This document shows positions 1 to 36,782 of a stretch of 64,000 nucleotides of DNA, piece after piece. A program made the position numbers and the translations under genes. This DNA comes from Flavobacteriales bacterium. GTDB taxonomy: Bacteria; Bacteroidota; Bacteroidia; CAIKAF01. The number at the start of each line of letters is the position of its first letter. Position 1 is the first letter of the stretch. Under the pieces are notes generated by a model, which saw only the letters and a program-made list of their open reading frames with translations, was not told where the DNA came from and ran no database searches. Location: assembly GCA_018401695.1 (NCBI GenBank), contig JAGYKD010000001.1, forward strand, positions 125,651-189,650. Reading direction: 5' to 3'.

Positions 1-2796
1 CTCAATTAAGAAGGACCGCCTTTTAGTGTTGAACTCTGAAATCAATATGCGTACTTCATTGCCTACTTTATTTTGTTGAAAAGCATGAACAAAACAATTC
101 TCTATAAAAACCTGAATTAAACCCGCAGGAATAGAAATTTGGTCCATTTCAGCAAAGGTGGGTTTTGCCTCAATTATTAACTCCACTGACTCAGGAAACC
201 TATCCTCTTGTAATTTGTGATATGACCGGACAAGCTCTAATTCTTTATTTAGTCCTATTAATTCGGACTGAAGATTTTCCAGAAAACCTCTTAACAAACC
301 TGCAAAATTCACTAAAAACTTAGATGCCTTCTCATTATTTCCAGAGTTTATCAAGCTGTAAACAGTATTGAGAGAGTTAAACACAAAATGTGGATTTAGC
401 GTTTTCTGGTATGCGATTAACTCTAATTCATAATACCGATTTAATTGTTTCATTCTTCTTTCCCGCATTCGGAGCCAGTATCTGATAAAAAGAAATGAAC
501 AAAGTAGGATAGTAAAAATAATACTTAACCGAAAAACTAGAGACTTATACCAAGGTGGGTTTACCTTAATCCAAAAAACAAACGGAGAGGATTCTATTCT
601 TAGGTCTGAGAGGTATGACCACACCTTAACCTCATGAACTCCAGGAGGAATACCCGTTAAATTAAAGGTGCCACTTTTGCTCTCACGCACTGTCACCCCA
701 GAAATTTCCATTATGTACTCTGAAGTAAGGGTACTAAAAAAGAAGGGCAGACCTGCATTGAAGCGCAAGGAATCTCCAAAATCTAAAGAAAGCATACTTG
801 AGGTTAAGTGTATTTCATCAATCCCTCTTACCATAGGGGAGACCGCTGTAAGTCGTTCAAGGCTCAGGGTAGAACTAAGCTGTACCTTGTGAAGTGCGGC
901 ATCGGTTTGGAAAATCATGGTATCTCCTTTGACCCAAAAAGCTTTTGCTTCTTGAAAAAAATGAGATCCATTTAGGGGCTGATATGAAAAAAACGGGTAT
1001 TTGTAAGGAGATACACAAAGAACAAAGTCTTTTGATGCAAAACAGGCACGTGTGTATAGCCCAGCATGGTTAATGGTTGACAAGAGCTTTCGACCAGAGG
1101 GCAGTTGAATCGCTGCCATAATCTCTCCTTCCCTTCTAACAATCAACCTATTACCCAACTCAAGTGACATAGTTAGCCCATTGTTCATGTAGTATTGAAC
1201 CAAGGGTCTATAATTAATGCTCTTTCTTTCCTCTTGAGGTTTTATGCTACTGTTCAAGACCCTTCCCTCAGGTTTTGAAATACAAAAAGACCTTAGAACA
1301 TTTTCATCTTGGAGGGTTAGTGTCAAATTTTGGTTTTCCTCGGTAAAATAAAATAGTCCGGGAAGCGTAGCCTGAAAAAACAAAAAGTTAATCTTATCGC
1401 CCTGGTAGAAAACATAGCCAAATGCATCATTAAACTGGACTACCAATGATTCTTTTCCTTGAAACACTGACTTAGGTTGCCCCAAAGTAATTTCTAAGGG
1501 GAAGGATACATCAAAGGACCAACTACCTCCAAGAGAAAAGTCTTGAAGACTCGTATAGGTAGGTTGTTTTACTTCATTGTCAGAATTTCTAACAGGAAAA
1601 ACGTACCACTTGGGACCAGGAATGACAAGTAATTTCCCCAGGAGAAATCCTTTGTTATACTCAGTCTCCTTTTCTTCAATGAAACCCAAGGTCTTATTCT
1701 GCTCAACGTTTCCCATCAAAAACACTCTTGTAGCATCTTTGTAGATAAAGCAAGTGTCATTTGAATACAAAAGCTTCCAAGAGCTCGGTATTCCTTTTCT
1801 TTCATGAAAATATCCACCTATTAAATACCGGGAACTTCCATTCGCACCTAAATACGAGGTAAGTGTAATAGGCTCAACAAACTGCTCCGAACGACCAAAA
1901 GGGCTTTCGTCCTCTAACAAAAACCCATATTTAGGATTCTTTGAAGAAAAGATCCCATTATTTGTTCTAGACTTCAATAGAAGAGAATCTTGCCGAACCT
2001 TCCTGTAAACTTCACTTGAAAAACTAAAGCTATAAACAGGAGCATTGGAGGCAATCCGAAAAAATAAACTGGCATTGTTTGCAAAGAACTCCAGTTTATG
2101 CTTGTATTTATCTTTTACTTGAAGCTTATGAGGGTAGTAGCTCACTTTTGGAGCCTCAACATTTTCAAAAACGACAACCCCCTTATTATCCAGAAAAAAA
2201 TACTTTCCATTGCTATGCCCTATCGGGTAAAAGGGCGAATGGTCATTCGGATGATTTATTCCACCTAAAAAGATGCCATCTCCACTATAAACAAGAACAC
2301 CCCTTTTAATAGGAATAAAGAGGTAGCCATTCAGTAACTTTGCCCCAGATTTTGCAAAAACGCTATTCCCGTTTTTATCCTTTAATGAGATCCTGCTAAC
2401 ACGACCAGCCCTATCAAGCTTCATTATATAGGTGGAAGTAGAAAACAGAAATAGAGAACTAGAATCTTGACTCAATACTAATTCCCAATATTCTAATGGA
2501 GGTAATGAGCTATATATTTTATTCATAGGACGTACTTGGCTCCCATCCCAACTCAGCAACCCATCAGAGGTAGCAGCAACAAACTGATTGTCAAAAAAAA
2601 CCAAATCGTATTCAAGCTGTACCGAAAAAGGAGATGAAAAAGGCTCATTCAAAGGCTGTGCGTGTGTTTGTAAAGAATAAACCCACAGGAGGAGAGAAGA
2701 GTATTTCAAGAACAATAGGAAATGGGTAACTGCTGCCCGACTCAGTTTTATTAATTTTACATCTGAATTTTTAAAATATGAATGGCTAAACCCCAT
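1..2796 (-). CDS. Membrane-anchored LytS/YehU-type sensor histidine kinase with large extracytoplasmic domain; 3' end runs off the window; absent from ORF track
   Basis: Hand translation gives an open minus frame from ATG 2796 (or TTG 2709, MKYSSLLLWVYSLQTHAQ, signal-like) to base 1. It contains a Y_Y_Y-like LTGIPPGVHEVKVW..VNPPWYKS, a TM helix, then LNPHFVFNSLN, ELELVRSYHKLQEDRF and IPAGLIQVFIENCFVHAF (His_kinase family motifs). Confidence 0.88.
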   Translation of the reverse strand, partial: MGFSHSYFKNSDVKLIKLSRAAVTHFLLFLKYSSLLLWVYSLQTHAQPLNEPFSSPFSVQLEYDLVFFDNQFVAATSDGLLSWDGSQVRPMNKIYSSLPPLEYWELVLSQDSSSLFLFSTSTYIMKLDRAGRVSRISLKDKNGNSVFAKSGAKLLNGYLFIPIKRGVLVYSGDGIFLGGINHPNDHSPFYPIGHSNGKYFFLDNKGVVVFENVEAPKVSYYPHKLQVKDKYKHKLEFFANNASLFFRIASNAPVYSFSFSSEVYRKVRQDSLLLKSRTNNGIFSSKNPKYGFLLEDESPFGRSEQFVEPITLTSYLGANGSSRYLIGGYFHERKGIPSSWKLLYSNDTCFIYKDATRVFLMGNVEQNKTLGFIEEKETEYNKGFLLGKLLVIPGPKWYVFPVRNSDNEVKQPTYTSLQDFSLGGSWSFDVSFPLEITLGQPKSVFQGKESLVVQFNDAFGYVFYQGDKINFLFFQATLPGLFYFTEENQNLTLTLQDENVLRSFCISKPEGRVLNSSIKPQEERKSINYRPLVQYYMNNGLTMSLELGNRLIVRREGEIMAAIQLPSGRKLLSTINHAGLYTRACFASKDFVLCVSPYKYPFFSYQPLNGSHFFQEAKAFWVKGDTMIFQTDAALHKVQLSSTLSLERLTAVSPMVRGIDEIHLTSSMLSLDFGDSLRFNAGLPFFFSTLTSEYIMEISGVTVRESKSGTFNLTGIPPGVHEVKVWSYLSDLRIESSPFVFWIKVNPPWYKSLVFRLSIIFTILLCSFLFIRYWLRMRERRMKQLNRYYELELIAYQKTLNPHFVFNSLNTVYSLINSGNNEKASKFLVNFAGLLRGFLENLQSELIGLNKELELVRSYHKLQEDRFPESVELIIEAKPTFAEMDQISIPAGLIQVFIENCFVHAFQQNKVGNEVRILISEFNTKRRSFLIE

Positions 2797-3655
2797 GATT
2801 AAAGAAAATACACAAACCCTCTTTTCATTTGTGAAATGGTTATTGGGTTCTGCCAAATTTAAATCATTTAAACCAATCGCTCCCGAACACAATTCCGCAG
2901 TCATTCTGGGGAATGGCCCGAGCCTGAGGGAATACCTACCTAACCTTTTGGAGCTTAGCTCCCGAGTTGAGCTCTGGGGAGTTAATTTCTTTTGCAACTC
3001 CGAAGCTTTCGATAATATAAAACCTAGATATTATGTGATAAATGCTCCAGAACTTGTTTTCCTTTCTGAGGATGCGATACCTCAAAAAACTATTGAAGCT
3101 AAAAAAGAGCTGCTTGCCAATATTTCTAAAGCAGATTGGCCTATGCAACTATTTGTTCCTTATCCTGGTGTAAAGGCTATGAAACGCCGGTTTAAAAACC
3201 ATATTCATATTAAAGTTCAGGGCTATAATGCCACCCCATTAGAAGGATCCGTTAAATTCACAAATTTTGCTTTAAGGCACGGGTGGGGGCTTCCTAGACC
3301 TCACAATGTTTTGATTCCAGCACTAGCCTTAGCTCTTAGAATGGACTTTACAAAAATTCTGCTTTTGGGAGCTGAGCACTCTTGGATTGAATCCTTAACA
3401 GTAACTCAAAATAATGAGGTACTTCTTGACCATCAGCACTTCTACGACAAAGGAAAGCAAATAGACAAAATGAACAGCTCCACATTTGAGCCGCGAAAGC
3501 TCCACGAAGTATTAGAAAAGTTTTATTTCAGCTTTAAATCGTATTGGGTTTTGAAGTATTTTGCTTCACATTTAAATATTCAAGTATATAATGTCACGCC
3601 AAAATCCTACATTGACGCCTTTAAAAAAGTAGATATAAACGATGTCCAATTTTAA
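2795..3655 (+). CDS. Maf/DUF115 (MptE-like) domain protein; candidate nonulosonate transferase
   Basis: AVILGNGPSL, KPRYYV and NVLIPALALALRMDFTKILLLGAEHSW motifs; first gene of the pse cluster. Confidence 0.65.
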   Translation: MIKENTQTLFSFVKWLLGSAKFKSFKPIAPEHNSAVILGNGPSLREYLPNLLELSSRVELWGVNFFCNSEAFDNIKPRYYVINAPELVFLSEDAIPQKTIEAKKELLANISKADWPMQLFVPYPGVKAMKRRFKNHIHIKVQGYNATPLEGSVKFTNFALRHGWGLPRPHNVLIPALALALRMDFTKILLLGAEHSWIESLTVTQNNEVLLDHQHFYDKGKQIDKMNSSTFEPRKLHEVLEKFYFSFKSYWVLKYFASHLNIQVYNVTPKSYIDAFKKVDINDVQF

Positions 3656-4664
3656 TAACAAAAGCATTTTAGTGACCGGAGGAACAGGATCCTTTGGTAA
3701 ATCCTTTGTAAGGGAAGTTTTGGATTCTTACCCTGAAGTAAGGAAAATCATCATTTTTAGTAGAGATGAACTAAAGCAATTTGAAATGGCTCAAGAGTTC
3801 TCTGCTGACGAACGCAAAAAACTTCGCTTTTTCCTTGGTGATGTTAGGGATAAAGACCGTTTAAACAGAGCAATTGAAGGAGTTAACATTATAGTACATG
3901 CCGCCGCCTTAAAACAAGTACCTGCGGCAGAGTATAACCCCTTGGAGTTCATTAAAACAAATATTTTAGGCGCTGAGAATATTATTGACGCTGCTTTTAA
4001 TAATGGGGTAGAAAATGTAGTTGCCCTGTCAACGGATAAGGCTGCCGCACCAGTTAATCTTTATGGTGCAACAAAGCTTTGTTCCGACAAACTTTTCCTT
4101 GCAGCCAATAATATCAAAGGAACACGTTCTATTAAGTTTTCTGTAGTTAGGTATGGTAACGTTATGGGAAGCAGAGGTTCCGTAATTCCATTTTTTCTAA
4201 AAATTGCAAAAAAGGCAACGAAAATACCAATTACCTCCCCTGAAATGACAAGATTTAACATTTCCCTTAAAGAAGGGGTAGATATGGTTCTATTTGCAAT
4301 AAATAACCAATGGGGAGGGGAGTTGTATGTTCCTAAAATCCCCTCTTATAAAATTTTAGATGTTGCTCAAGCAATCGCTCCAAGCCTACCAACCGAAATT
4401 GTTGGTATTAGGCCCGGTGAAAAAATTCATGAAGAAATGATTACCGAGGCAGACTCTTACTCTACCTTCGACATGGAAAAATATTTTGCCATCCTTCCTC
4501 AAATACCTGTCTTTGATTTAGAAAGTTTTAAGAGTCATTTCAATGCCAAGCCTGTGAGTCAAGGCTTTAAATATAACTCAGGTACAAACTCCGATTGGTT
4601 AAATGTGGAAGACATTAGGAGTTTAATTAAATTGCATGTCGACAAAAATTTTGAACCTATTTAA
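3642..4664 (+). CDS. pseB: UDP-N-acetylglucosamine 4,6-dehydratase (inverting)
   Basis: TGGTGSFG, FSRDELKQFEM, HAAALKQVPAAEYNP, STDKAAAPVNLYGATK, RYGNVMGSRGSVIPFF. Confidence 0.95.
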   Translation: MSNFNNKSILVTGGTGSFGKSFVREVLDSYPEVRKIIIFSRDELKQFEMAQEFSADERKKLRFFLGDVRDKDRLNRAIEGVNIIVHAAALKQVPAAEYNPLEFIKTNILGAENIIDAAFNNGVENVVALSTDKAAAPVNLYGATKLCSDKLFLAANNIKGTRSIKFSVVRYGNVMGSRGSVIPFFLKIAKKATKIPITSPEMTRFNISLKEGVDMVLFAINNQWGGELYVPKIPSYKILDVAQAIAPSLPTEIVGIRPGEKIHEEMITEADSYSTFDMEKYFAILPQIPVFDLESFKSHFNAKPVSQGFKYNSGTNSDWLNVEDIRSLIKLHVDKNFEPI

Positions 4665-5866
4665 TGGAAAGACCAATCCCATATGGCAAACAATTCCTAA
4701 CGGAAGAAGACATTAAAAGTGTTGTTGAAGTACTAAATTCGGACTACCTTACTCAAGGCCCTAAAATAGAAGAATTTGAAAATGCGTTTTCCAAATATGT
4801 TAACGCCGAATATGGGGTAGCAGTAAATAATGGAACTGCTGCCTTACACATTGCTTTAAAGGCACTTGGGGCAGAACCAAATCAATATGTTTTAGTACCC
4901 CCAATAACATTTGCAGCCTCTGCGAATTGTATAGAATACAATAACGCTATTCCACTCTTTACAGAAGTTGATGAACATGGACTCATGGATCTAAACTATG
5001 TGGAGGATTTGGTAAAAAGATATGGAACAAAAATAAGGGGAGCTATTCCCGTACAATACGCAGGTAAAGCTCTTAATCTAAAAAACTTAAGAGAAATACT
5101 TTCTACAATAGGGGGCTGGATCTTGGAGGATGCTTGCCATGCACCGGGAGGCTCTTTTGTTAAACCTAATGTAACCTTCCATTGTGGTGATGGCCAATTC
5201 TCCGATGCTAGTATTTTTTCATTCCACCCGGTTAAACACATTGCGACAGGTGAAGGCGGCATGGTGACAACTCCTCACTCCAAAGTCGAACAAAAACTTC
5301 GCACTCTTAGAACTCACGGTATCACAAAAGACCATGAACTTTTCCAAAACCCATTGGACTTAGCAAACGGGGAATCTCAGCAATCAAATTACCCAAGTTG
5401 GTATATGGAAATGCAAGAGTTAGGTTATAATTATAGACTAACTGATTTTCAAGCAGCATTAGGTATTTCCCAACTTACAAAGGCTAAGGAAAACCTTGAA
5501 AAACGGAGAGATATAGCTCGCTACTACATGAAAGAGCTTCAAGATTTACCAATTGAGCTCCCTTTTGATAACTTCAAGTCTCATGAAATCAACCACCACG
5601 CTCTACACCTGTTTGTCATAAAAACTGAAAAGAGAAGGGCGCTTTACGATTTTCTAAGAGAACATAAAATTTTTGCGCAAATCCATTATTTCCCGATACA
5701 CCTGATGCCCTATTACAGAAAAAAATACGGATATAAGCCTGGAGACTTTTCATCTGCTGAGAATTTCTATTCCAAATGCTTGTCTATTCCTTTGTTTCCT
5801 AGCTTAACAATTCAAGAAATGGATAGGGTTATAAATAAAATAAAGGACTTCTTCCGTCATGGATAA
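4664..5866 (+). CDS. pseC: UDP-4-amino-4,6-dideoxy-N-acetyl-altrosamine transaminase (DegT family)
   Basis: IPYGKQ, LTQGPKI, EDACHA, SFHPVKHIATGEGG, MQELGYNYRLTDFQAALG. Confidence 0.92.
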   Translation: MERPIPYGKQFLTEEDIKSVVEVLNSDYLTQGPKIEEFENAFSKYVNAEYGVAVNNGTAALHIALKALGAEPNQYVLVPPITFAASANCIEYNNAIPLFTEVDEHGLMDLNYVEDLVKRYGTKIRGAIPVQYAGKALNLKNLREILSTIGGWILEDACHAPGGSFVKPNVTFHCGDGQFSDASIFSFHPVKHIATGEGGMVTTPHSKVEQKLRTLRTHGITKDHELFQNPLDLANGESQQSNYPSWYMEMQELGYNYRLTDFQAALGISQLTKAKENLEKRRDIARYYMKELQDLPIELPFDNFKSHEINHHALHLFVIKTEKRRALYDFLREHKIFAQIHYFPIHLMPYYRKKYGYKPGDFSSAENFYSKCLSIPLFPSLTIQEMDRVINKIKDFFRHG

Positions 5867-6608
5867 ACCCACGTTTAGAGTTTTTATTCAAGCTAGAATG
5901 AGTTCAACCCGTTTGCCGGGGAAAGTTTTAAGAAACCTAAATGGACAACCTGTTTTGTTTTGGGTAATTGACAGAACAAAAAAGCTTGGACTCGAAACTA
6001 CAGTTCTTACAAGTAATGATTCAAGTGACAACTTTATTCAAGAATGGTGTGAAAAAAATGAGGTGGACTGTTTCAGAGGATCTCTAAACAATGTTCTTTA
6101 TCGATTTGTCGAAGCAGCATTGAACAGACCTGCAGATTTCTACATTCGGTTAACTGCAGATTGCCCACTAATTTTTTCTGAGCCAATTGAACAAGGGATT
6201 AAGTTCTGTAGGCTTTTGTTTGATCAAAAACCAAACAGCAAAATATTTTGTTCAAATTCTATTTGCAGATCCTACCCAAGAGGTTTAGATTTTGAAATCT
6301 TTTCAAGAAACTTGCTTGAAACAACAGGCCAAATGGCAAAAGATAATTATGAGCTCGAGCACGTTACCCCTTTCATGTATTTAAGTCCAAATGGTGCTGA
6401 AAAATTAATTCAGGTCACACACTCCACAGATTTATCTAATTACCGAATAACACTAGATACCGAAGAGGATTTTAGAGTTATTTCCAAAATATTTTCTGAA
6501 AAGAAAAAATTCTTAGCCAGTTTTAGCGATTTTACTAACAACCTTTCTAATTGGAATAGCATTTTTGACTTAAATAAACACATCCATCAAAAAGGAATTT
6601 ATGAATAA
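5859..6608 (+). CDS. spsF: SpsF-type cytidylyltransferase (functional PseF candidate)
   Basis: IQARMSSTRLPGKVL, RLTADCPLI, YPRGLDFEIF, EHVTP, RITLDTEED. Confidence 0.85.
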   Translation: MDKPTFRVFIQARMSSTRLPGKVLRNLNGQPVLFWVIDRTKKLGLETTVLTSNDSSDNFIQEWCEKNEVDCFRGSLNNVLYRFVEAALNRPADFYIRLTADCPLIFSEPIEQGIKFCRLLFDQKPNSKIFCSNSICRSYPRGLDFEIFSRNLLETTGQMAKDNYELEHVTPFMYLSPNGAEKLIQVTHSTDLSNYRITLDTEEDFRVISKIFSEKKKFLASFSDFTNNLSNWNSIFDLNKHIHQKGIYE

Positions 6609-7659
6609 TGCAGTGGTACATATTGGTCAAAGTAAGTTGTCTTTAAGTACCAGACCTTACATTGTAGCTGAACTTTCTGCAAACCACGGCAACAGCTTAG
6701 AATTGGCATTAAAAACAGTCAGTGCTGCAAAATCTGCCGGAGCAGACGCCATAAAACTGCAAACCTACACCGCAGACTCAATTACCTTCAACCATAAATC
6801 CGAAATATTCAAAATAAATCAAGGAACTGTCTGGGATGGTGAGTACTTATACGATTTGTACGAAAAAGCACATATGCCATGGGAATGGCACGATCCTATT
6901 TTTAAATTGGCTAAAGAACTAGGGATAGATTGCTTTAGCTCTCCTTTTTCTCCGGAAGCAGTTGACTATTTAAAAAAATTCAATCCGCCAGCCTTCAAAA
7001 TAGCTTCCTTTGAAATAACAGATATTCCACTTATTAAATATGCGGCCAAACAGAACAAGCCCATTATTATTTCTACAGGTATCGCCAATGAAAATGACAT
7101 TAAGCTTGCGTTAGATGCCTGTCACCAAGTGGGCAATTCAGAGGTCATCTTACTAAAATGTACTTCTGCCTATCCAGCCCCCATCGACTCCTTACAGCTC
7201 AGGCTCATTCCAATAATGAGAAAGCAATTCAACACCCTAGTTGGTCTTTCTGATCACTCTAAAGGAATTATTGCTCCTACAATTGCTACGTCGCTAAATG
7301 CAGTTTTTATTGAAAAGCATTTTATTCTTGATAAATCTGTGGGAGGCCCTGATGCCCATTTCTCGCTAGAGCCAAAAGAGTTTAAAGAAATGGTTGATAC
7401 CGTACATAAAACGTTTGAGGCACTAGGACCTGAAGTAAATAGCTTTCCTTCGACTCGACCCAAAAGTCAGTTTGCCAGATCTTTATTCATTGTAAAAGAT
7501 GTAAAACGCGGAGATTGTATCTCTCAAGAAAACATTAAGTCCATTAGACCGTCGCATGGCCTACACCCAAAATACTACGAAAGTATTCTTGGGAAAACGT
7601 TTCGACAGGACCTACCCGCCGGAACACCTTTAAGTAAAGACCATTATTCAGAATCCTGA
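6601..7659 (+). CDS. pseI: Pseudaminic acid synthase (NeuB family with SAF domain)
   Basis: AELSANHGNS, KLQTYTAD, KIASFEITD, LLKCTSAYPAP, GLSDHS, EKHF, SIRPSHGLHP. Confidence 0.92.
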   Translation: MNNAVVHIGQSKLSLSTRPYIVAELSANHGNSLELALKTVSAAKSAGADAIKLQTYTADSITFNHKSEIFKINQGTVWDGEYLYDLYEKAHMPWEWHDPIFKLAKELGIDCFSSPFSPEAVDYLKKFNPPAFKIASFEITDIPLIKYAAKQNKPIIISTGIANENDIKLALDACHQVGNSEVILLKCTSAYPAPIDSLQLRLIPIMRKQFNTLVGLSDHSKGIIAPTIATSLNAVFIEKHFILDKSVGGPDAHFSLEPKEFKEMVDTVHKTFEALGPEVNSFPSTRPKSQFARSLFIVKDVKRGDCISQENIKSIRPSHGLHPKYYESILGKTFRQDLPAGTPLSKDHYSES

Positions 7660-9137: not shown

Positions 9138-11646
9138 CCAACAACCACAAAACTGCACTTCCTACCCTACTATAACCCGCCGACCTATACACCGTCTCCG
9201 GATAAAAATACCAGCGTACATTATGATTCCCTGCCGGTACCTTTAAGCCGCGAAGTACATAATTTACACGTATCGGGCTTGCCGGCATTCCGTCAATCTC
9301 TGCTTTCCAACCCCTGTCGTAGTATATCTCAGAAAATACCACCAAACCTTCTTTGCTTTGGTTTACCTTGTACTTCACTTCCTCTGGCGCCCATGTAAGT
9401 AGCTCTGCTCTTCCTAAGCTATCCAATCCGGGGCTTAACCCCGCAACTTCCTCTGAAAAGGATTCCTCAACCACCGCAACCCGCTTCAAATCCTCTCTGC
9501 GCATTACCTCGCCTATGGCTGCAGCAGCATCCGAAACCATAACTACCGAATCCGCAAGCCAAGCCGCTCCATACCTATGCATATTCATAAAAGGGGCTGC
9601 TTGCTTATCATAAATCAGGTATTTGGTATTCAACATATTCAGTGCTGCCAATCCTTTAAATGCCTCGCCCTGTTCCCTTACATCTCTTGCCCGTTGCAAC
9701 CGACTCACCATTACACTCAAATCCCCTCCCAATCTGCGCTCTACCAAATCTTGATAGCGACGTACCTTGGCCCCATGATAGCCTCCTATGGAATGGTGAA
9801 AAAACGAGGTAGTGCCATCGTTAAACGTGGAAACCGCTATGTTCGCCACTCTAAATCCCGGATCCGGATCATCCATAATCATTCGATCGGCTGCACTTGG
9901 AGTCATGGATACAGACTTGGGCTTCTTTACCTCAAATTTATCCTCCGTTAAATATCGGCTATCCACCAAAAACAAATCGACGCCTACAATCAAACCCAAG
10001 GCTACACCGGCATGCAAGGCCTTAAGTTTTCCCTTAAGATAGTAAAACAAAACCCCTGCACCCAAAACAACTACCAAAAGACTGCGGAGCAAATCGGCCC
10101 GAACTATGGAAGCTCTTGCCGATTCTAAGACATCCAATATGGCTCCCGTATTGCTCCCCGCCACGCTTTGAATAGCATCGGCATCTTTTGAGGGTACCAA
10201 GTCCTGAAACAAGCCCGGTGCCAACCAATTCAATAACAAAAAGGCAACACCGGCAGCACCAATATACATGCCTAATTTCTCTTGGGATATCTTTAAATAT
10301 GCAACCTGTTCCTTTAAGCGCTCTTTATTAAACAATACCGTATCTAAGCTAAGTCCAAACAAAACCGGCAAACAAAACTGAGGAACTACCATTATGGAGT
10401 TTACCGCTCTAAACTTGTTGTAGCCTGGAAAATAATCAATAAAAAAGTCCGTCAATATGGGGTCGTTCTTACCCAGCGACAACCACATCGTGAGCACAGT
10501 ACCCGCAAACAAAGCCCACTTAATGCTCGAACCCACCAAGAACATGCCCCAAAGTGCCATCAAAAACACAAAGGCTCCAACATAAATGACTCCTCCGGCG
10601 GCATCTTGATTTCCCCAGTATTGATCTAAATAAATCCCCTGCTGAAAGGCTTGGCCTTGAAAACTCTGCAAATTTCTGGCCTCCTTTGGATCCAGACGAC
10701 TCATGGCCTCTTCGTTATTTACCAAAGCTCCGTTACCCGGCCCCTTGTAGTTGGGAACAAAAAGTGCCCAATAATCTCCGGTAGCATAACTATAACCGGT
10801 TATATAACTCCTAGGCAAGCCTCCGGTTTGCTCTGCTTCGTCTACAACAGTTGCTTCTCCGCTTAACTCAGACGGGGCACGTGTGCTCACTTTTTGATAC
10901 TCCAATATGGGCATTATCCGGTTCAGATTGGCTGCCAGGGCGGCCACCATAGCAAGGGCCAACACACCACCGCCAAAGACCACGTGCCGCACGTCACCAA
11001 CTTTTATGGCTTTTATGGCCTCAATTAAAGCCCAAAAGCTTACAAAAAAGGCTCCATAATAGTACACCATTTGATAGTGACCGGCCATAATGGCGCAGCT
11101 CATGCCAATACCGGCCAAGCCTGCACCCGCTAAGTATTTCTTCCGAAACACCCAGGCCACCCCGGCCAAAAACCAGGGCAAATAGGCAATAGTAAGCACT
11201 TTGCCAAAGTGACCTGCTCCTAATACTACCGCCACATAACTGGTAAAACCAAAGGCCAAAGCCGACGCTGCGGCTGTTACCGGACGCAAACCCAAGGCCA
11301 CCATGAATAAATAGAAACCTGCCATAGACAGCCATAAGTACAAGGCCACTCTGGGTAATCCCAAACTTAATATCTGATGCACAATAGGACTCACATAATT
11401 GCCCTCTGCTTTAAAATACACCAAATACATGGGCATGCCGCCAAACATACTATTGGACCACAAAGGCGTTGCCCCGTTTTCCTCCTCGTATTGCATGGCT
11501 TCTTGAGCTGCTCCACGCCACATATCGTCGTCGTGAGCCCGGAGCTCCATGCCTTGAAATACTTCTGCCCGTCCATACAATAATGCGGCAACCAACAGCA
11601 CCGCTAATGCGGCTAAATGAGGATACAAAAAACGAAAACGGTTCAT
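9082..11646 (-). CDS. yfhO: YfhO family membrane protein (GT-C-like)
   Basis: PLWSNSMFGGMPMY, GHYQMVYY, PGYNKFRA, IGGYHGAKVRRYQDL, FSEIYYDRGWKAEIDG, VNYVLRGL. Confidence 0.88.
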   Translation of the reverse strand: MNRFRFLYPHLAALAVLLVAALLYGRAEVFQGMELRAHDDDMWRGAAQEAMQYEEENGATPLWSNSMFGGMPMYLVYFKAEGNYVSPIVHQILSLGLPRVALYLWLSMAGFYLFMVALGLRPVTAAASALAFGFTSYVAVVLGAGHFGKVLTIAYLPWFLAGVAWVFRKKYLAGAGLAGIGMSCAIMAGHYQMVYYYGAFFVSFWALIEAIKAIKVGDVRHVVFGGGVLALAMVAALAANLNRIMPILEYQKVSTRAPSELSGEATVVDEAEQTGGLPRSYITGYSYATGDYWALFVPNYKGPGNGALVNNEEAMSRLDPKEARNLQSFQGQAFQQGIYLDQYWGNQDAAGGVIYVGAFVFLMALWGMFLVGSSIKWALFAGTVLTMWLSLGKNDPILTDFFIDYFPGYNKFRAVNSIMVVPQFCLPVLFGLSLDTVLFNKERLKEQVAYLKISQEKLGMYIGAAGVAFLLLNWLAPGLFQDLVPSKDADAIQSVAGSNTGAILDVLESARASIVRADLLRSLLVVVLGAGVLFYYLKGKLKALHAGVALGLIVGVDLFLVDSRYLTEDKFEVKKPKSVSMTPSAADRMIMDDPDPGFRVANIAVSTFNDGTTSFFHHSIGGYHGAKVRRYQDLVERRLGGDLSVMVSRLQRARDVREQGEAFKGLAALNMLNTKYLIYDKQAAPFMNMHRYGAAWLADSVVMVSDAAAAIGEVMRREDLKRVAVVEESFSEEVAGLSPGLDSLGRAELLTWAPEEVKYKVNQSKEGLVVFSEIYYDRGWKAEIDGMPASPIRVNYVLRGLKVPAGNHNVRWYFYPETVYRSAGYSRVGSAVLWLLVIGGAVVFWRGVSAKGQE

Positions 11647-19251: not shown

Positions 19252-20175
19252 TTAGGCTTTGAACCAAAAGCCTTGAAATATCCACCAGCCGAATTTCACA
19301 ATCATAGAAGCCTTGGCCGGTTGTCCCCGAAGCAAGTAGCCCAGGGCAAGGAGCAAGGTTCCTGCGGATTTGGCCGTAAATTCCAAGTATCGTTTAAGCT
19401 TTGGGAAAAATGGAAGATCGGCTACTTCCAATTTTTCGCCTTTAGCAAAACCATAGCTGAATTTCTTTAAGTAGCCGGGATTAAGCTTGCTTTTATCTAC
19501 CAAATGATGCACCACTAAATCGGGGTAATACCATACCTGCATCATCTTTTCGCGGCCTTTTACCCTAGCAAAGAGTTCTTTTTCTTCTCCGGCGAGCAAA
19601 ATGGCGCCTTTTCTTCCAAGGTTGGTATTAAATAAACCGTAGGTATCGAAAAAGCGGCGGTGGTAGGTCATGTTGGAGCCGCAGGGAAATTTCCCCCAAA
19701 ACAAAATCGGTCCGTCTTTTTCGCCGGGGTCAAATTGGCCGGTAACTCCCCAGTAATATTTGGTATACCATTCGGGTTTTCCATCTACAAAGCCCGGAAT
19801 GATTTTTCCACCAATGGCATCCAGCTCAGGACGTTGATCCAAGTATTCCAGGTTTTTTCGCAAAAAATCCGGTGCTGCCAGGGCATCGTCGTCCAGGAAG
19901 GTTAGGATGTCTGCCTTAGCTTCGGCAATGCCGCGGTTTCGGGCATGGCTAAGTCCCTGATTGGCTTCGTGTACCAGTTTAAGGTTCATTTCAGGGCAAG
20001 ATTCAATAAACGCCCTTACCACCTCCACCGAGCGGTCGGTGCTGTTGTTGTCGACTACCACCACTTCGAAGTCGTTGTAGGGAAGGTCTTGTTTGGATAG
20101 CGCCTCAAGCGCTTTTCCTATGTATTTTTCGCGGTTATAGGTACATACAATTGCCGCAATGCGTGGTTGGCCCAT
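19252..20175 (-). CDS. Glycosyltransferase family 2
   Basis: IVCTYNR, VVDNNSTD, GLSHARNRG, FLDDD, GEEKEL. Confidence 0.92.
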   Translation of the reverse strand: MGQPRIAAIVCTYNREKYIGKALEALSKQDLPYNDFEVVVVDNNSTDRSVEVVRAFIESCPEMNLKLVHEANQGLSHARNRGIAEAKADILTFLDDDALAAPDFLRKNLEYLDQRPELDAIGGKIIPGFVDGKPEWYTKYYWGVTGQFDPGEKDGPILFWGKFPCGSNMTYHRRFFDTYGLFNTNLGRKGAILLAGEEKELFARVKGREKMMQVWYYPDLVVHHLVDKSKLNPGYLKKFSYGFAKGEKLEVADLPFFPKLKRYLEFTAKSAGTLLLALGYLLRGQPAKASMIVKFGWWIFQGFWFKA

Positions 20176-20305
20176 GAGGCAAAATTACATAAAAGCATGG
20201 GGCAAAGCAGAAACTCTCCAAAGGCAAAATTTGTCGATTGGCTATACTTTCTATCTTTACCCCAAATACCACCGACCGGCAGGTTCGGTGCCAAAGCCAA
20301 ACCTG

Positions 20306-22087
20306 ATGAATGCACTGCTAAACAAGCCCTTGGTACGCATCGGAGTGCCTGTTTTGCTCCTATTTTTTGCCACCTTTAGAATATTTGGCAACATAGGCTT
20401 GGAAAACAGGCCGGCCACAGGCTACGACGAGCAAATGTGGACCAGCGCCTCGGTAAGTAGTTGGGCCATGTTTGCCCAAGGGCATGTGCGACCAACAAAA
20501 GAACTGGACAATTGGTTTCCCACCTATGCCTGGAAGCACGAACTGGACATTTTTACCGGCGAAAAATGGTCGCAAGGGTTTAACCCGGACACGGTTACCT
20601 TTCCTTACGATTACATAACCCTTGAAAACGAAAATCAGGGATATTCCCAACTAATTAAATACGACACCCTTAAATTCCCAAGAAAAGATTTTCAGTGGTT
20701 TGACCGAGCCACCTGGACCTTTGGTTGGAAAGCACCCAACTTGGGCAAATACCTTATGGGGGCTTGGTTGGCAGTTAGTTCCGAAGGTACGAACCCCAAC
20801 GGTTACTTTAAATTTGAAACTCCGGAAGGAAAGCCCAGCGGCGCACCTTTTGCCTATACCCCACCTGAGCTAGTGGCCAAAGCCCGTATAATAAATGCCT
20901 TGTTTACCTTAGGCAGCCTATTGCTTGTATTGTGGCTGGGTGGTATGATTCAATGGCCTGTAACCGGTTGGGTGGCGGCCCTGTTGCTGCTGCTAAACCA
21001 AGATTTTATAGACGTGAATACCGCCGTTGGTTTAGACTCTTTTGTGGTGTTCTTTTCCTTGCTTTCGGCGGCCTTTTTGATTAAAACCTTTTTTGCGCTG
21101 CAAAAAGAGCAAGGGATAAAACCTATTTTTCTTTGGGCAGCAGCCACCGGTTTGGCCCTGGGCGGAGCAGTGAGTAGTAAGCTCAACGGTGCCATGATGG
21201 TGGTAGCTGCCGCGTTGGCCTTTGCTTGGCTTGCCTATTGGGCTTTCAAGCACAAAAAAACAAACAAGGTTTGGGTCCGAAAATTCATAGGAGCCGGCCT
21301 ACTGACCGGAGGTCTTCCGGTGCTTTTGTTTGTTGTTCTTAACCCACAAGTTTGGCATGAACCTGTGGGGCGCGCTAAGGCCCTTCAAGAATCAGCCGAC
21401 GGGTACTTCGAAAAAAGAGCAGTGATTTTAACCTTCACTCAATTTTACGATCCTTTGCAAGCCATGGGCAACAGCCTAAACGCACGGGTGCAAAGTGGGA
21501 GAATGGACCCTGCCGCTTTTCAGGGCCTCGTAAACCAGCTCAACAGCTTTGGAGCTAAGATTCAAAACGACAGAAACAAGCCGGAAACTTATGCCCAAGT
21601 GCTACCCAAGCGGTATGCAGAACTTCAAAAAATTCATGAGCAATTTAGTACCGCAGCCGATACCAGTGTCATGGAAGACGCACCCTTTTACAATTGGGTT
21701 GCCATTAAAAACGAGTTTGGTCCGGCTTTTGGCTTAATGATTAAGCGCACAGGAATACATCCAGGCGAAGGCCCCGGCCTGCACTACTACGGCACCTTTG
21801 GCAATTTGATTCCCATAAAAAACAATCCATTGGACCTGTTGCTACTGGTTTTTGGATTGCTGGTGCTATTGCTGGCCTGGTACAAAGGACTTTTGGAACA
21901 CCGTATGCCGGCAGTAGTAATGTTGTTGTGCACAGTTATGGTGGTTTATGGCAATACCAATTTCTTATGGCAAGATTGGAGCAGATATTTTACCGTGTTT
22001 TTGCCTTGGTATAGTTTAATATCGGCCTTTGGGCTTATATATTTGCTGCAGCACAAAAAGGAAGTAAAGCGCCTGTTTAAATTTTAG
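20306..22087 (+). CDS. Polytopic membrane protein, GT-C (PMT/ArnT-like) glycosyltransferase
   Basis: GYDEQMW acidic pair after first TM, APNLGKYLMG, SKLNG; many TM segments; start moved to ATG 20306. Confidence 0.6.
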   Translation: MNALLNKPLVRIGVPVLLLFFATFRIFGNIGLENRPATGYDEQMWTSASVSSWAMFAQGHVRPTKELDNWFPTYAWKHELDIFTGEKWSQGFNPDTVTFPYDYITLENENQGYSQLIKYDTLKFPRKDFQWFDRATWTFGWKAPNLGKYLMGAWLAVSSEGTNPNGYFKFETPEGKPSGAPFAYTPPELVAKARIINALFTLGSLLLVLWLGGMIQWPVTGWVAALLLLLNQDFIDVNTAVGLDSFVVFFSLLSAAFLIKTFFALQKEQGIKPIFLWAAATGLALGGAVSSKLNGAMMVVAAALAFAWLAYWAFKHKKTNKVWVRKFIGAGLLTGGLPVLLFVVLNPQVWHEPVGRAKALQESADGYFEKRAVILTFTQFYDPLQAMGNSLNARVQSGRMDPAAFQGLVNQLNSFGAKIQNDRNKPETYAQVLPKRYAELQKIHEQFSTAADTSVMEDAPFYNWVAIKNEFGPAFGLMIKRTGIHPGEGPGLHYYGTFGNLIPIKNNPLDLLLLVFGLLVLLLAWYKGLLEHRMPAVVMLLCTVMVVYGNTNFLWQDWSRYFTVFLPWYSLISAFGLIYLLQHKKEVKRLFKF

Positions 22088-22093
22088 AAGGCC

Positions 22094-22816
22094 ATGCGTA
22101 TAAAACTGTATTTTATTCGGAAGACCAAGGCGTGGTTTATGCGCTTGCATTTGCATGTTTTGGTGGAACCTTTTTCGGGCTTTCTTTTGAATTTGGCCTA
22201 TTTGAGTAAAATGAGTGCTTGGAGGGCCAAGCACAAGCATTTGGCCTTGAACGACTTTATGAGTCACCGCTACGACTACAACAAAAGATTGCAACTCCAC
22301 GCCCATGTGTTGGAAACCGAAGACCTCAAAGGCCCCATTCACTATTTGGAATTTGGGGTAGCCCGCGGCGAAAGTATATTGTGGTGGTTGCAGCACAACA
22401 GCCATCCGGAATCTAAGTTTGTGGGATTTGACACCTTTACAGGTCTGCCTGAAGATTGGAATGTGTTTAAAAAAGGGGATATGAGTGCCGAAGGGCAAGT
22501 TCCGGCAACGGATGACCCCAGAGTGCAATGGGAGGTAGGTTTATTTCAGGATACCTTGCCCGGCTACTTGGAAAAAAATCGGCCAGAAGGACGTTTGGTA
22601 ATTCACTTGGATGGAGATTTATACACCGCCGCTTATTTTCCCTTAAATGCCTTGGCCACTCACTTAAAACCGGGAGACCTTATCTTGTTCGACGAATTTG
22701 GTGTTCCCACCCATGAATTTAAAGCCTTTACGGAGTTTTTTGCTTCCTATTACAAAGATTATGAGGTGTTGGGAGCTCTAAACAACTACCTGCACCTGGC
22801 CATAAAACTCAAATAA
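22094..22816 (+). CDS. TylF/MycF-family O-methyltransferase
   Basis: YLEFGVARGES, GFDTFTGLPE, GLFQDTLP, HLDGDLY, LFDEF. Confidence 0.85.
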   Translation: MRIKLYFIRKTKAWFMRLHLHVLVEPFSGFLLNLAYLSKMSAWRAKHKHLALNDFMSHRYDYNKRLQLHAHVLETEDLKGPIHYLEFGVARGESILWWLQHNSHPESKFVGFDTFTGLPEDWNVFKKGDMSAEGQVPATDDPRVQWEVGLFQDTLPGYLEKNRPEGRLVIHLDGDLYTAAYFPLNALATHLKPGDLILFDEFGVPTHEFKAFTEFFASYYKDYEVLGALNNYLHLAIKLK

Positions 22817-22839: not shown

Positions 22840-23427
22840 TTAGTTCTTAGCTTTTTGGGGTAAGAAAAGATTGGTTTCGATGAGTTCCACCAAGGTATGG
22901 CCCAAAAGCAGGTGCATTTCTTGGATTCGAGAAGTAATCTGAGCGGGGACGAGCAAACAAACGTCACACAATTCGGACATAGTTCCTCCGCTTTTGCCTG
23001 TAAATCCTATGGTTTTGGCACCTAAAATCCGAGCCTTTTCTAAACCGCGGAGCACATTTTGGCTGGTGCCTGAGGTGCTAAAACCTATGCAAACGTCTCC
23101 GGGCAGGCAAAGCGCCTCTACCTGTCTGGAAAAAACCATATCAAAGCCAAAGTCATTGCCAATAGAGGTAAGAGCGGCAGGATCGGAGGTTAAAGCCACT
23201 GCAGGGAGTCCTTTACGGTCCAACTGATAGCGTCCTGTAAATTCAGCAGCCAAATGCAGCGCATCTGCGGCACTTCCCCCATTGCCAAACAACCAAATGC
23301 GATGCCCATTTTGCAAGGCATGCAAGCAAAGGTGGGCGGCCTTGCCTATGGCTGAAGCGCATTGGGATTGGGTAAGCTCAGTTACTTTTAGGTGTTCTTG
23401 GAACAAATGGTTTACCAGTTCTTGCAT
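22840..23427 (-). CDS. gmhA: Phosphoheptose isomerase
   Basis: GNGGSAADA, LTSIGNDFGF, STSGTSQNV, TSRIQEMH. Confidence 0.93.
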   Translation of the reverse strand: MQELVNHLFQEHLKVTELTQSQCASAIGKAAHLCLHALQNGHRIWLFGNGGSAADALHLAAEFTGRYQLDRKGLPAVALTSDPAALTSIGNDFGFDMVFSRQVEALCLPGDVCIGFSTSGTSQNVLRGLEKARILGAKTIGFTGKSGGTMSELCDVCLLVPAQITSRIQEMHLLLGHTLVELIETNLFLPQKAKN

Positions 23428-33606: not shown

Positions 33607-34595
33607 TCACATTTTCGGTTCAACTATTATTGTCCACGAAATGGATTGTAATCGCTCTTGAATCATTTTTAACGTTTTTAAAATATCCTTTTCATTTGGC
33701 AATTCGCCATAGACCAAACTTTTAAAAACAGCTGAATAAGTAGGGTTTATTTCACTCCAAACACTATCCAATTCTTTGAAGATAAGGGCTTCCTTTGGGT
33801 GGTGCATGAGCCATTTATTATTATTCCTGAAACTTGCCACATCATCAATGGCTACTTTCAAAAGCATTTCATCAAAAGACTTTGAATGAAAGAATTCTGA
33901 ATACACCTCTTGTTTCAATAGCTGATGCAAATCGTAGGTGTGGCGTATCTTTTTCTTTAAATCTTCTATTGGATTTTCACCATAAGAAAAACGAACCAAG
34001 CTCATTATTTTTTCGCAAATGGTTCTGATGGGCTCTAATACCAATACATCAAAAGGAAGCAAATTATTTTCTTCAGCAATTTGGGCTTGTTGAGCATCTA
34101 CCATCATTTGCCCTACGAATGAAATGATGCTTTTGGTGGTGTAAGGCTCATAATATCCCAGCCAAGTAGATTCTAAAATGATGACGTCTCTTACTTGCCC
34201 ATAATCACCTTTGAATTCTTTGTTGTAGGAATGTGCCGTTTTTCTATTCATTCCCATTTTATGGGTGATACCTTCAATAGGGACTTCTGGCAAAATGCTT
34301 TCTACAACCTTGCTTACGGTCTTTAATTTTGATTTTAACCTGCTGTCTGTTTCTCCTTCACGCCTTAACACTACCAAATCAATATCTTCAGAAAATCGGT
34401 CTATCATCTGGTAACATTTAGACAATGCGGTACCGCCTTTGAATACGGTGTCGTTGGCTATTTCATTTTTGAAAATGGTAAACAAAGCAAGGTCACCCAA
34501 TAGTCTTTTTCTACATATTCGGGCTTTAGCTTCATTTTTTGGGCGGCAAACCGAATGGCATCCTTGTAAAGTGCTATGTTCTCGTGCAGCCTCAT
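33607..34595 (-). pseudogene. abiEii: AbiEii nucleotidyltransferase toxin, frameshifted near codon 36
   Basis: ATG 34595 overlaps the antitoxin stop and reads MRLHEN...YVEKDYWVT. A 1-nt shift at ~34489 then joins ALFTIF..VFKGGTALSKCY..RFSEDIDL. Span 989 bp = 3n-1. Confidence 0.82.
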
Positions 34596-35320
34596 TCGAT
34601 ATACCAATTTGATTTTGTGGGCAATTCACTCTCTTTTACGCCCAATTTTATGATAGTTAGTGGGTTTAAACTGTCTTTTAACTTTTCAATGCCTTGTGCT
34701 TTGCTGCCTAAATTTTCCAATATGGCGCCTACTAATGCGCGCACTCTTGGCGGATACTTCAAAGCATATTTGAGTAAGCTTGCGGTTTGCTTTTCGTTAA
34801 GCTCTTTTACTATGGCCCTTAGTCTATTTATTGCCTCACCCACAGAGCAATCAGGAATTTTTTTAATGTCTTTGAATGCATCCAACAAGCCTAATGTCTC
34901 CCAATTAATATCGGTCACTTCGGCATAACTTTTTACGGCATCAGCTTTTAGGTTTTCCCGATTGATGTTGACGCGTTTTCCTCGACTCGCAATTTTAATG
35001 CGGAATGCCATTTGAGTAGTTAAGCCCAAACGATTGTAAAGTGAAGTGCCTGTTTCGTAAGCCACTCGCTTACCGTTTTCAAACAAATAAGGGCGGAGCA
35101 ATTCGCCGTAATCGGGTTTTAGTTCGCCAAATACGGTTTGCTCAGGTTTGTAAAACACCCCTTTGGAAACTTTCTTTATCAACCCTTCCTTTTGCAGCCG
35201 TTCTAAGACTTTGGCTGCTGTGGTATAGTCTTCTTTGGCAATACGCAAATCGTCATAACCAAAGGTTTGCCCTTCGGGTAGCTGTTGTATTCGTTTGCGC
35301 ATTTCTGTTGCCAATGCCAT
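34592..35320 (-). CDS. abiEi: AbiEi-type antitoxin / wHTH regulator (DUF6088-like)
   Basis: LERLQKEGLIKKVSKGVFYKP, LYNRLGLTTQ; directly upstream of AbiEii; start ATG 35320 with TATCTTTG box at 35325-35332. Confidence 0.8.
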   Translation of the reverse strand: MALATEMRKRIQQLPEGQTFGYDDLRIAKEDYTTAAKVLERLQKEGLIKKVSKGVFYKPEQTVFGELKPDYGELLRPYLFENGKRVAYETGTSLYNRLGLTTQMAFRIKIASRGKRVNINRENLKADAVKSYAEVTDINWETLGLLDAFKDIKKIPDCSVGEAINRLRAIVKELNEKQTASLLKYALKYPPRVRALVGAILENLGSKAQGIEKLKDSLNPLTIIKLGVKESELPTKSNWYIE

Positions 35321-35345
35321 AATGCAAAGATAGTTATGATTTTGT

Positions 35346-35379
35346 AATGTCAGGTTTTTGGCGCTAAAAACTTGACATT
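35346..35379. promoter_or_regulatory. Inverted repeat, candidate AbiEi operator
   Basis: AATGTCAGGTTTTT-GGCGCT-AAAAACTTGACATT (14-bp arms, one mismatch) just upstream of the -7 box. Confidence 0.7.
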
Positions 35380-35480
35380 TTGTACTGATAAACATCTTCC
35401 TCTTTCTTTCCGTTCGAACCTGTCGGCATTTCCGGCTAGTTCTATTTTTGGGGAAGCCTACACCCCGACTTATATACTAG

Positions 35481-36782
35481 GAGACCGTTGACGTTTTCCA
35501 CCAACAAGCCCTTTATTGATGCTTATTCTTGATTTTTTCCGACTCAATTTCGAGATTTTATAAGTTTTTCGAATGTTTTGGTCTCATTTTTGGCCTTTTT
35601 TTCGTGCCATTTTGGGCGAAATCGCCCTCCTTTTCCTCCTTTTTTAACTCATGGACATAACTATCCCAGGGGATCGTTTTAAATTGTAGGCTATGGCTTC
35701 CATTAGATGTTGGGTATGGGTTTTTTCCAACCCAGCGTACCTTGCCACTCCCGACTTAAACCATCGTTTTATTCCTCCAAAGCTTCGCTCTATCGGATAA
35801 CGGTGCTGGGTAATAAAATCGTTCATCTCTTGCTTTGCCCTTGATAAAGTTTTGCCTCTTGACTTTTTATGCATGATGCCGTTCTTTAGCCCCATCTTCT
35901 TTAGCAACTTCTCATTCTTTTGACTTCGATAACCCTTATCACCAAACAACCTGGCACCCTTTTCAATGGGTACATTCGCTAGTACAACCTCTAAATTGCT
36001 AATTTCATTCACATTGGCCTCCGTGGTGTGGATGCCTATAAATAAGCCATTAGGATCGCTAACGGCATGTGCCTTGTAACCGAAGGTAAAGTCCCCGCCT
36101 TTGCACACCCAGCGCGCCTCATCATCTACGCCGGGCTGTTTGACTTTGACAAGCTTGAGTTGCTCCTTTTCCTGCTCGGGATCTTTTGGGTCTTCCAGAT
36201 CATTCGTAATCTCATAGGTAGCTTTACCCTTTGGGCTTCTTGGGCTTCTGGTCAGCGTGGCATCTACAATGGCTCCCTCTTTAACGATAATCCCCTTCTT
36301 CATCCGCTGCTTATTGATTTCTTTGAAAAGCTTTTCAAAGGCTTTTGTCTTAGTAAGCTCGGTGCGGAACTTAGAGACCAAACTATGGTCAGGAGAAGGA
36401 AAGTCTAAGGGAAGTCCAATAAACTCGCTGCATGCAAAAGAGTCGTTCACCCTATCCTCTACCTGATAATCATTAAGTCCATACCAAGTTTGAAGCAAGA
36501 GCATTTTAAAAAGAAGCAAACCAGGAACAGATGGCTGTCCATTGGCGGAATGCCCTTTGGTGTAATACTTATGAATAATGTTTTGAATGGGGCGCCAGTC
36601 GATTATCTGGTCAACATTTCTAAGGAAATCTCTGGTTTTGCTTTTTCTGCCCTCTTAGGCCAAGTCAAAAAAGGAGGGGCGATTGCTTTTTTCCATGGTC
36701 AAATATAAGAAAAAATCGGCAAATAACCCTGCAACAAACTGTTTATAAGTATGTTAAATTAAAATGACGCGTCAACAGTCTC
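35481..36782 (-). mobile_element. IS5-family insertion sequence (1302 bp)
   Basis: Terminal IRs GAGACCGTTGACG (35481-35493) and CGTCAACAGTCTC (36770-36782), one mismatch; encloses a DDE transposase. Confidence 0.88.
35644..36696 (-). pseudogene. IS5 transposase with in-frame TAA at codon 14
   Basis: MEKSNRPSFFDLA*EGRK...IDWRPI...LLFKMLLLQTWY; IVDAT, GYKAH, GDKGY, RYPIERSFG. Confidence 0.85.

Follow-up and report, generated by a model that had tools for sequence, protein, structure and literature searches.

Near the start of the 64,000-nt stretch of Flavobacteriales DNA analysed here (the window; it lies on contig JAGYKD010000001.1, below C1) is an operon of six same-strand genes with mutual overlaps of 1 to 14 nt. 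Its first gene encodes a stand-alone Maf-like protein of 286 residues, which is followed by PseB, a PseC-like aminotransferase, an SpsF-like cytidylyltransferase, PseI and a Wzx-type flippase (Table 1). Sequence comparisons and a structural model suggest that the 286-residue protein is probably a transferase for pseudaminic acid (Pse), a nonulosonate, which would use the cytidine monophosphate (CMP)-activated sugar as donor and a lipid-linked glycan as acceptor. For the family at large, CMP-nonulosonate transfer is the most likely function.

An earlier, sequence-only reading of this DNA had placed the Maf-like gene at the head of pseB-pseC-spsF-pseI-wzx and had named its product the sole candidate transferase of the operon. 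Open reading frames (ORFs), domain matches and overlaps confirm the gene order, and scans of the six genes with Pfam and NCBIfam returned no further glycosyltransferase domain. PseB and PseI exceed the cut-offs of their NCBIfam equivalog models, whereas the PseC-like protein stays just below its own. Genes resembling pseG and pseH are not among the operon's members. At the downstream end, a YfhO-like gene on the opposite strand shares its last 56 nt with the 3' end of wzx.

Table 1. Features of the window, of the remaining source genome and of related loci. Positions refer to the window unless a contig (C1) or a locus (L number) is given; aa, amino acids; GT, glycosyltransferase.
Feature	Position	Strand	Evidence and remarks
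LytS-type histidine kinase	1..2793	-	PF06580; divergent from the pse operon, within the low-GC island
Maf-like stand-alone protein, 286 aa	2795..3655	+	ATG start; first gene of the operon; candidate CMP-Pse (nonulosonate) glycosyltransferase
PseB, uridine diphosphate N-acetylglucosamine (UDP-GlcNAc) 4,6-dehydratase (inverting)	3642..4664	+	TIGR03589, 514.9 bits (cut-off 407.75); 14-nt overlap with the Maf-like gene
PseC-like aminotransferase	4664..5866	+	TIGR03588, 410.4 bits (cut-off 423.5); DegT family, 331 bits
SpsF-like cytidylyltransferase, presumed CMP-Pse synthetase	5859..6608	+	PF02348 CTP_transf_3, 81.6 bits; PseF model, 20.5 bits (weak)
PseI, pseudaminic acid synthase (NeuB family)	6601..7659	+	TIGR03586, 469.2 bits (cut-off 340.25)
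Wzx-type (MOP superfamily) flippase, 492 aa	7659..9137	+	PF01943, 28.2 bits, at cut-off; MatE, 24.3 bits
YfhO-like GT-C membrane protein, 854 aa	9082..11646	-	PF09586, 32 bits; convergent with wzx
GT2, 307 aa	19252..20175	-	PF00535, 111.8 bits; divergent from the PMT-family GT-C
PMT-family GT-C	20159-22087	+	
TylF-type methyltransferase	22094-22816		
SIS-domain protein	22840-23427	-	
AbiEii-type toxin region	33607-36519	-	
LytTR response regulator	C1:124650-125400		Just outside the window start; shares the low-GC island
Second NeuB-family synthase and KdsC-like phosphatase	C1:1085140-1086488	-	Synthase 30% identical to PseI
PseG-like and PseH-like	C1:1113464-1114961 (L085 9465-10962)		~985 kb from the pse operon, same contig; beside a 377-aa GT2 and an FkbM methyltransferase
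Maf-like/cytidylyltransferase fusion ORFs	L036 3131-4753; L046 2396-4039; L051 3278-4900; L079 9956-11584		Bacteroidales metagenome-assembled genomes (Barnesiella, Porphyromonadaceae, Bacteroides sp.)
Loci with the 461-aa GT2/cytidylyltransferase-like fusion	L011-L013, L015, L024, L054, L064, L067, L073, L075		

The label 'Maf/DUF115-like' given to the protein in that earlier reading stems from a match to PF01973 (Maf_flag10, MptE-like, formerly DUF115) that covers residues 23-81 only and, at 27.4 bits, falls below the gathering score of 34.6. No NCBIfam model matched the 286-residue protein, and a direct sequence search against chains of the PDB gave no match. The family itself is large. A word-indexed search returned at least 732 homologues from Bacteroidota and Melioribacteraceae, nearly all of about 290 residues and labelled 'hypothetical protein', one of them being 94% identical and of equal length. 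In an exhaustive profile search over clusters at 50% identity, 4282 representatives passed a threshold of E<=1e-3, 1031 of them even one of E<=1e-30, and nearly all of the best 150 are about 280-310 residues long.

Profile searches and the structural model were based on a 53-sequence family alignment (A1), in which N40-G-P-S43, N64, R168, N171, G192, H195, W197, H215-F-Y217 and S271..D274-A-F are invariant. Members of this alignment match PF01973 at E<0.01 in 47 of 53 cases (best 2.6e-9), while PF06002 (CST-I) is matched by a single member (E 0.0019). Against the PDB, the A1 profile weakly and partially matches the GT42 enzymes CstI (E 0.0017) and CstII (range E 0.0017-0.016); the aligned part covers the (A/L)GNGPSL nucleotide motif and the strand ending in G-x-D ('YL-G-D'; a G-A-D/E segment). 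Judged by conservation, the catalytic residues would be sought in GNGPS, R168, N171, H195, W197 and H215-F-Y.

The AlphaFold2 model built from A1 is of high confidence (predicted local distance difference test 93.7, predicted template-modelling [TM] score 0.92). Its top Foldseek match in the PDB is human ST8SiaIII (GT29, 5bo6; E 6.8e-5, TM 0.39-0.41, root-mean-square deviation [rmsd] 8.6-9.3 A), accompanied by the Maf glycosyltransferase of Magnetospirillum magneticum (5mu5; E 8.1e-5, probability 1.00, query TM-score [TMq] 0.50, target TM-score [TMt] 0.25). The pterin pyrophosphokinase MptE of Methanocaldococcus jannaschii (8sd5; E 2.2e-4, TMq 0.29-0.30) ranks last among these fold classes, so that GT29 and the Maf core come out ahead of it, and CstI and CstII are not among the top matches. 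This ranking places the 286-residue protein in the sialyltransferase-like modified GT-A superfamily, which comprises GT29, GT42 and Maf.

Akin to the Maf proteins of M. magneticum, Geobacillus and Clostridium, the protein has a modified GT-A core related to GT42, an N-terminal GNGPS-type nucleotide motif that is recognized by PF01973, and a genetic linkage to genes for the biosynthesis of Pse, legionaminic acid (Leg) or neuraminic acid (Neu). Unlike Maf, it consists of the core alone (286 residues, whereas the 5mu5 chain has 632) and lacks the N- and C-terminal domains that bind flagellin, and its C-terminal half is family-specific. Literature searches on DUF115 or MptE-like proteins yielded no relevant work beyond flagellin glycosylation. 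With the GT42 enzymes CstI and CstII of Campylobacter jejuni (2p2v, 2x63/1ro7) it shares a similar size (258-290 residues) and, as a proposal only, the combination of a CMP-nonulosonate donor with a lipid-linked oligosaccharide acceptor; the sequence match to them is, however, marginal and partial. Catalysis in the GT42 enzymes involves His188, as the base, and Arg129, Tyr156 and Tyr162, which contact CMP-Neu5Ac. The GT29 enzymes ST8SiaIII and ST6GalNAc2 (6apl) provide the best Foldseek E-values and a full-length alignment of about 250 columns, but at 11-15% identity and a TM-score of about 0.4, and GT29 enzymes are eukaryotic, lumenal and disulfide-bonded.

Relatives of the Maf-like protein are encoded in 287 of 185,579 species genomes. 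We examined 80 loci with the proteins of the window as queries, 38 of which have at least 8 kb on each side (the well-flanked loci). Within 10 kb of the Maf-like gene, these 80 loci hold a NeuB-family synthase in 50 cases, a cytidylyltransferase in 37, PseB and PseC in 28 each and Wzx in 22; in 32 of the 38 well-flanked loci a NeuB-type synthase lies within 8 kb, and a flippase is present in 16 of them. Among 401 sampled Bacteroidia genomes the family occurs in 31, all of which encode NeuB, compared with 231 of the 401 overall (58%), and the same holds at the genus level (15 of 15 carriers versus 125 of 200). The association with neuB-type genes across Bacteroidota, together with the fold, thus supports the role of CMP-nonulosonate transferase that had been proposed from the sequence alone.

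The partner genes differ between loci. At least four nonulosonate gene sets adjoin the family: a Pse type, two types with NeuB and a cytidylyltransferase, and one with NeuB and a KdsC-type phosphatase. The contexts told apart include one with Pse genes; one that combines a hexapeptide acetyltransferase and a cytidylyltransferase with a distant NeuB, a methyltransferase and a fusion of GT2 and cytidylyltransferase; one typical of Marivirga; and a Bacteroidales type, in which NeuB is accompanied by a KdsC-like phosphatase. Mapped on the family tree, context type changes 7 times, compared with about 26 in shuffles, a difference that is confounded by organismal relatedness and which we count as weak support for a transferase. 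Loci of the Bacteroidales type have a single ORF of 540-547 residues in which the Maf-like domain is joined to an SpsF-like cytidylyltransferase, followed by the genes for NeuB and the KdsC-like phosphatase; the exhaustive profile search yielded an additional representative of fusion size (539 residues). The complete cassette of six genes, from the Maf-like gene to wzx, is found again at 45-72% identity in L005-L009, the closest named relatives, which are freshwater Flavobacteriales metagenome-assembled genomes; there it is flanked by a different polysaccharide locus on one side and a KdsC region on the other. Its recurrence in another genomic setting indicates that all six genes travel together. 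Neither a conserved candidate target protein nor folate genes were seen in the neighbourhoods of the family.

Another recurrent arrangement consists of a 461-residue GT2/cytidylyltransferase-like fusion with a 370-residue methyltransferase, about 3 kb downstream of the Maf-like gene. The NeuB of these loci is distant, at 25-29% identity to PseI, and the loci represent an uncharacterised type of nonulosonate pathway.

Further genes were sought in the source genome (2.99 Mb, 99.8% complete). A PseG-like protein (332 residues; 124.8 bits against a cut-off of 153.55) and a PseH-like GNAT protein (171 residues; 38.6 against 93.1) are encoded next to each other, far from the operon, and the Pse pathway would be split over two loci. 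No match to flagellin (PF00669) was found in the genome, in a search that detected its controls. The TagB-like Glyphos_transf (PF04464) and the KpsS-like Capsule_synth families had no match in the genome either; GT52 likewise gave none, but that search had no working positive control and is uninformative. No second Maf-like gene is present. The genome also holds a second NeuB-family synthase beside a KdsC-like phosphatase, a pair that suggests a second nonulosonate of the ketodeoxynononic acid (Kdn)/Neu type.

In the scheme that we favour, CMP-Pse would be made by PseB, PseC, PseI and the SpsF-like cytidylyltransferase of the operon together with the PseG-like and PseH-like proteins encoded elsewhere. 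The Maf-like protein, as a cytoplasmic stand-alone catalytic domain, would use this donor at the membrane's inner face to attach Pse to a sugar of an undecaprenyl-linked glycan, and the Pse-capped glycan would be exported by the operon's Wzx. It would then probably enter general protein O-glycosylation through the adjacent YfhO-like GT-C or, alternatively, lipopolysaccharide (LPS) or capsule. Besides fold and co-occurrence with NeuB, the natural fusion to the cytidylyltransferase, the lack of flagellin, the canonical FolK, the missing TagB-like and KpsS-like transferases, the PseG-like and PseH-like genes and the recurrence of the cassette speak for this reading. The identity of the donor as CMP-Pse, the acceptor and the roles of Wzx and the YfhO-like protein are what we infer.

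Several observations weigh against this assignment. The Pfam match is subthreshold and confined to the N-terminus, and when the C-terminal half was used as a profile by itself (A3, residues 140-262), the PDB yielded nothing beyond chance matches; since that half holds most of the invariant residues and has no sequence relative there, CstII and Maf give no guide to the catalytic residues. Structural similarity is modest (TM 0.39-0.50, rmsd about 8.7 A), and with the MptE kinase among the matches the fold by itself does not decide against a kinase. No NeuB gene lies within 8 kb in 6 of the 38 well-flanked loci. The scores of PseC, PseG, PseH and the PseF-like protein are all under the NCBIfam equivalog cut-offs, which leaves the Pse assignment incomplete. 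Finally, the adjacency to YfhO could stem in part from a favoured insertion site rather than from shared function.

That adjacency is part of a wider synteny. Neighbour clustering gave as the commonest order a YfhO-like gene (about 818 residues), a GT2 gene (about 304 residues), the Maf-like gene and then the nonulosonate genes. The GT2 gene, which precedes the Maf-like gene in the same orientation with a median distance of 67 nt, is found in 54 of the 80 loci (27 of the 38 well-flanked loci), and the YfhO-like gene in 37 (25 of the well-flanked). Cultured carriers of this arrangement include Marivirga tractuosa and Melioribacter roseus. The arrangement extends through Cytophagales (five families), Saprospirales, Flavobacteriales and Sphingobacteriales and into Ignavibacteriota, and its conservation across two phyla is new here. 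The YfhO-like protein of the window is 33% identical (E 2e-114) to the YfhO-like neighbours of Maf-like genes elsewhere. A specific co-occurrence of YfhO with the Maf-like family was considered and rejected: a YfhO-like protein is encoded in 391 of the 401 Bacteroidia genomes, mostly in single copy, and with so nearly universal a distribution only the adjacency is informative. The GT2 family, found in 26 of the 401 genomes, is enriched in carriers of the Maf-like gene (10 of 31, against 16 of the 370 others). The GT2 of the window is a bona fide member, with 37-43% identity to the members of this cluster (cluster 1), whose own median is 40.6%, but it lies 10 kb away and adjoins a PMT-family GT-C.

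According to a 2025 review, the oligosaccharyltransferase (OTase), the ligase and the core flippase of Bacteroidota O-glycosylation are undiscovered (PMC12871550), and a preprint of July 2026 predicts in silico that YfhO is the OTase of this system (bioRxiv 10.64898/2026.07.27.740950). The conserved synteny with the YfhO-like GT-C favours O-glycosylation, an option already named in the earlier reading, as the destination of the glycan, with LPS or capsule as alternatives. Tentatively, and with more doubt than for the transferase itself, the Maf-like enzyme, the 304-residue GT2, the Wzx-type flippase and the YfhO-like GT-C may form one module that builds a short, nonulosonate-capped glycan on undecaprenyl phosphate (Und-P) or undecaprenyl diphosphate (Und-PP) for periplasmic delivery.

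In a more specific version, which we think rather unlikely, the GT2 would place a hexose on Und-P, the Maf-like enzyme would add the nonulosonate, Wzx would flip the product and the YfhO-like GT-C would transfer it to protein or LPS: in effect, a Gtr/CsbB-YfhO-type system that is one sugar longer. The absence of an initiating phosphoglycosyltransferase from the recurrent order YfhO > (Wzx) > GT2 > Maf-like > nonulosonate genes speaks for such a route, as do the genomes in which the GT2 adjoins YfhO even without a Maf-like gene (G005, G030, G151, G188) and the three long C-terminal helices in the AlphaFold2 model of the GT2. Yet Foldseek identifies that model as a generic GT-A GT2, and the resemblances in the PDB, by sequence and by fold, are to ordinary GT2 enzymes (RmlT, TarS, PcManGT and chondroitin synthase), with DPMS weak and no GtrB or ArnC; an assignment of the GT2 as a GtrB/CsbB-type polyprenol-phosphate sugar synthase is therefore unsupported. 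Moreover, the known GT-C enzymes with polyprenol-monophosphate donors transfer single sugars, and the window's own GT2 stands apart from the operon, next to another GT-C.

The Maf-like protein might instead, as its characterised relatives do, glycosylate protein directly, attaching Pse to Ser or Thr of a non-flagellin protein in the cytoplasm or before export. Maf proteins of the same fold, with a nonulosonate donor, act on protein (bioRxiv 10.1101/2020.06.03.131540), and the model matches 5mu5. This alternative is improbable all the same: the additional domains of Maf are missing, and the alignment takes in just a part of the 5mu5 chain (TMt 0.25); a flippase belongs to the operon and to 16 of the 38 well-flanked loci; and neither a flagellin in the genome nor a conserved candidate target in the neighbourhoods offers itself as a substrate. 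The setting, with Wzx, GT2 and YfhO in place of flagellar genes, again differs from that of Maf.

More improbable still is another step in nonulosonate metabolism, with the protein replacing PseG or PseH or hydrolysing or modifying the CMP-nonulosonate. Such an activity would account for an operon without pseG and pseH, and tight linkage to biosynthetic genes is equally expected of a pathway enzyme. Against it, PseG-like and PseH-like genes occur elsewhere in the genome, 20 related loci hold a PseG-like and a Maf-like gene together, the family is also found in non-Pse clusters, which have no PseG or PseH steps, and the fold is of the CMP-sugar transferase type. An MptE-type 6-hydroxymethyl-7,8-dihydropterin pyrophosphokinase, to which the weak PF01973 match, the Pfam family name, the Foldseek match to 8sd5 and a Rossmann-like N-terminal half shared with archaeal MptE might point, is scarcely credible, as its structural match is the weakest of the three classes, the genome already encodes a canonical FolK (PF01288, 80.6 bits) that makes such a kinase unnecessary, the neighbours are nonulosonate genes throughout with no folate genes, and in some genomes the domain is fused to a cytidylyltransferase.

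Besides the operon, a low-GC island (guanine-plus-cytosine fraction 0.36-0.41, against 0.473 for the genome) whose limits lie some 2.6 kb ahead of the window and near position 9300 contains a divergent LytS-type kinase and a LytTR regulator, which may regulate the pse operon. Upstream lies a gene for a 931-residue cargo protein of the type IX secretion system with a CHU_C domain. The GT2 of the window belongs to a second glycosylation cluster, which also includes the PMT-family GT-C, the TylF-type methyltransferase and the SIS-domain protein. Farther downstream, the gene for an AbiEii-type toxin (340 residues) adjoins one for a DUF6088 protein, its probable antitoxin partner, next to a DDE transposase (291 residues).

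Transferases for Pse, Leg and related acids are few, although many bacterial surfaces bear these sugars. The only experimentally supported nonulosonate transferases of Bacteroidota that we found are those of Tannerella forsythia, Tanf_01245 and TFUB4_00887. Knockout and complementation support their role in capping the general O-glycan, and their genes adjoin the CMP-Pse/Leg locus (PMC5420450). Phylum and CMP-Pse/Leg-type gene context are common to them and to the Maf-like protein, but they are of an unrelated family and a different fold: TagB-like enzymes of 442-445 residues with D/E-D/E-G and HP motifs (PMC5420450), for which the source genome has no Glyphos_transf homologue. The idea that the Tannerella Pse transferase is itself Maf-like is accordingly wrong.

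The Maf-like protein is an uncharacterised variant within a known enzyme superfamily. With it, a large family of 'hypothetical proteins' has been delimited, which comprises more than 1000 clusters at 50% identity and occurs in about 8% of the sampled Bacteroidia genomes. As a minimal catalytic domain of 286 residues, the protein would be an appealing subject for structural studies and a tool for chemo-enzymatic pseudaminylation. Its repeated adjacency to a YfhO-like GT-C provides a testable link to the OTase/ligase question of phylum-wide O-glycosylation; if the proposed module is real, the YfhO > GT2 > Maf-like > nonulosonate synteny would for the first time connect YfhO through its genomic context with glycan transfer in the general O-glycosylation of Bacteroidota and Ignavibacteriota. 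The Maf-like family is, in our view, the best candidate for nonulosonate transfer in non-flagellated bacteria.

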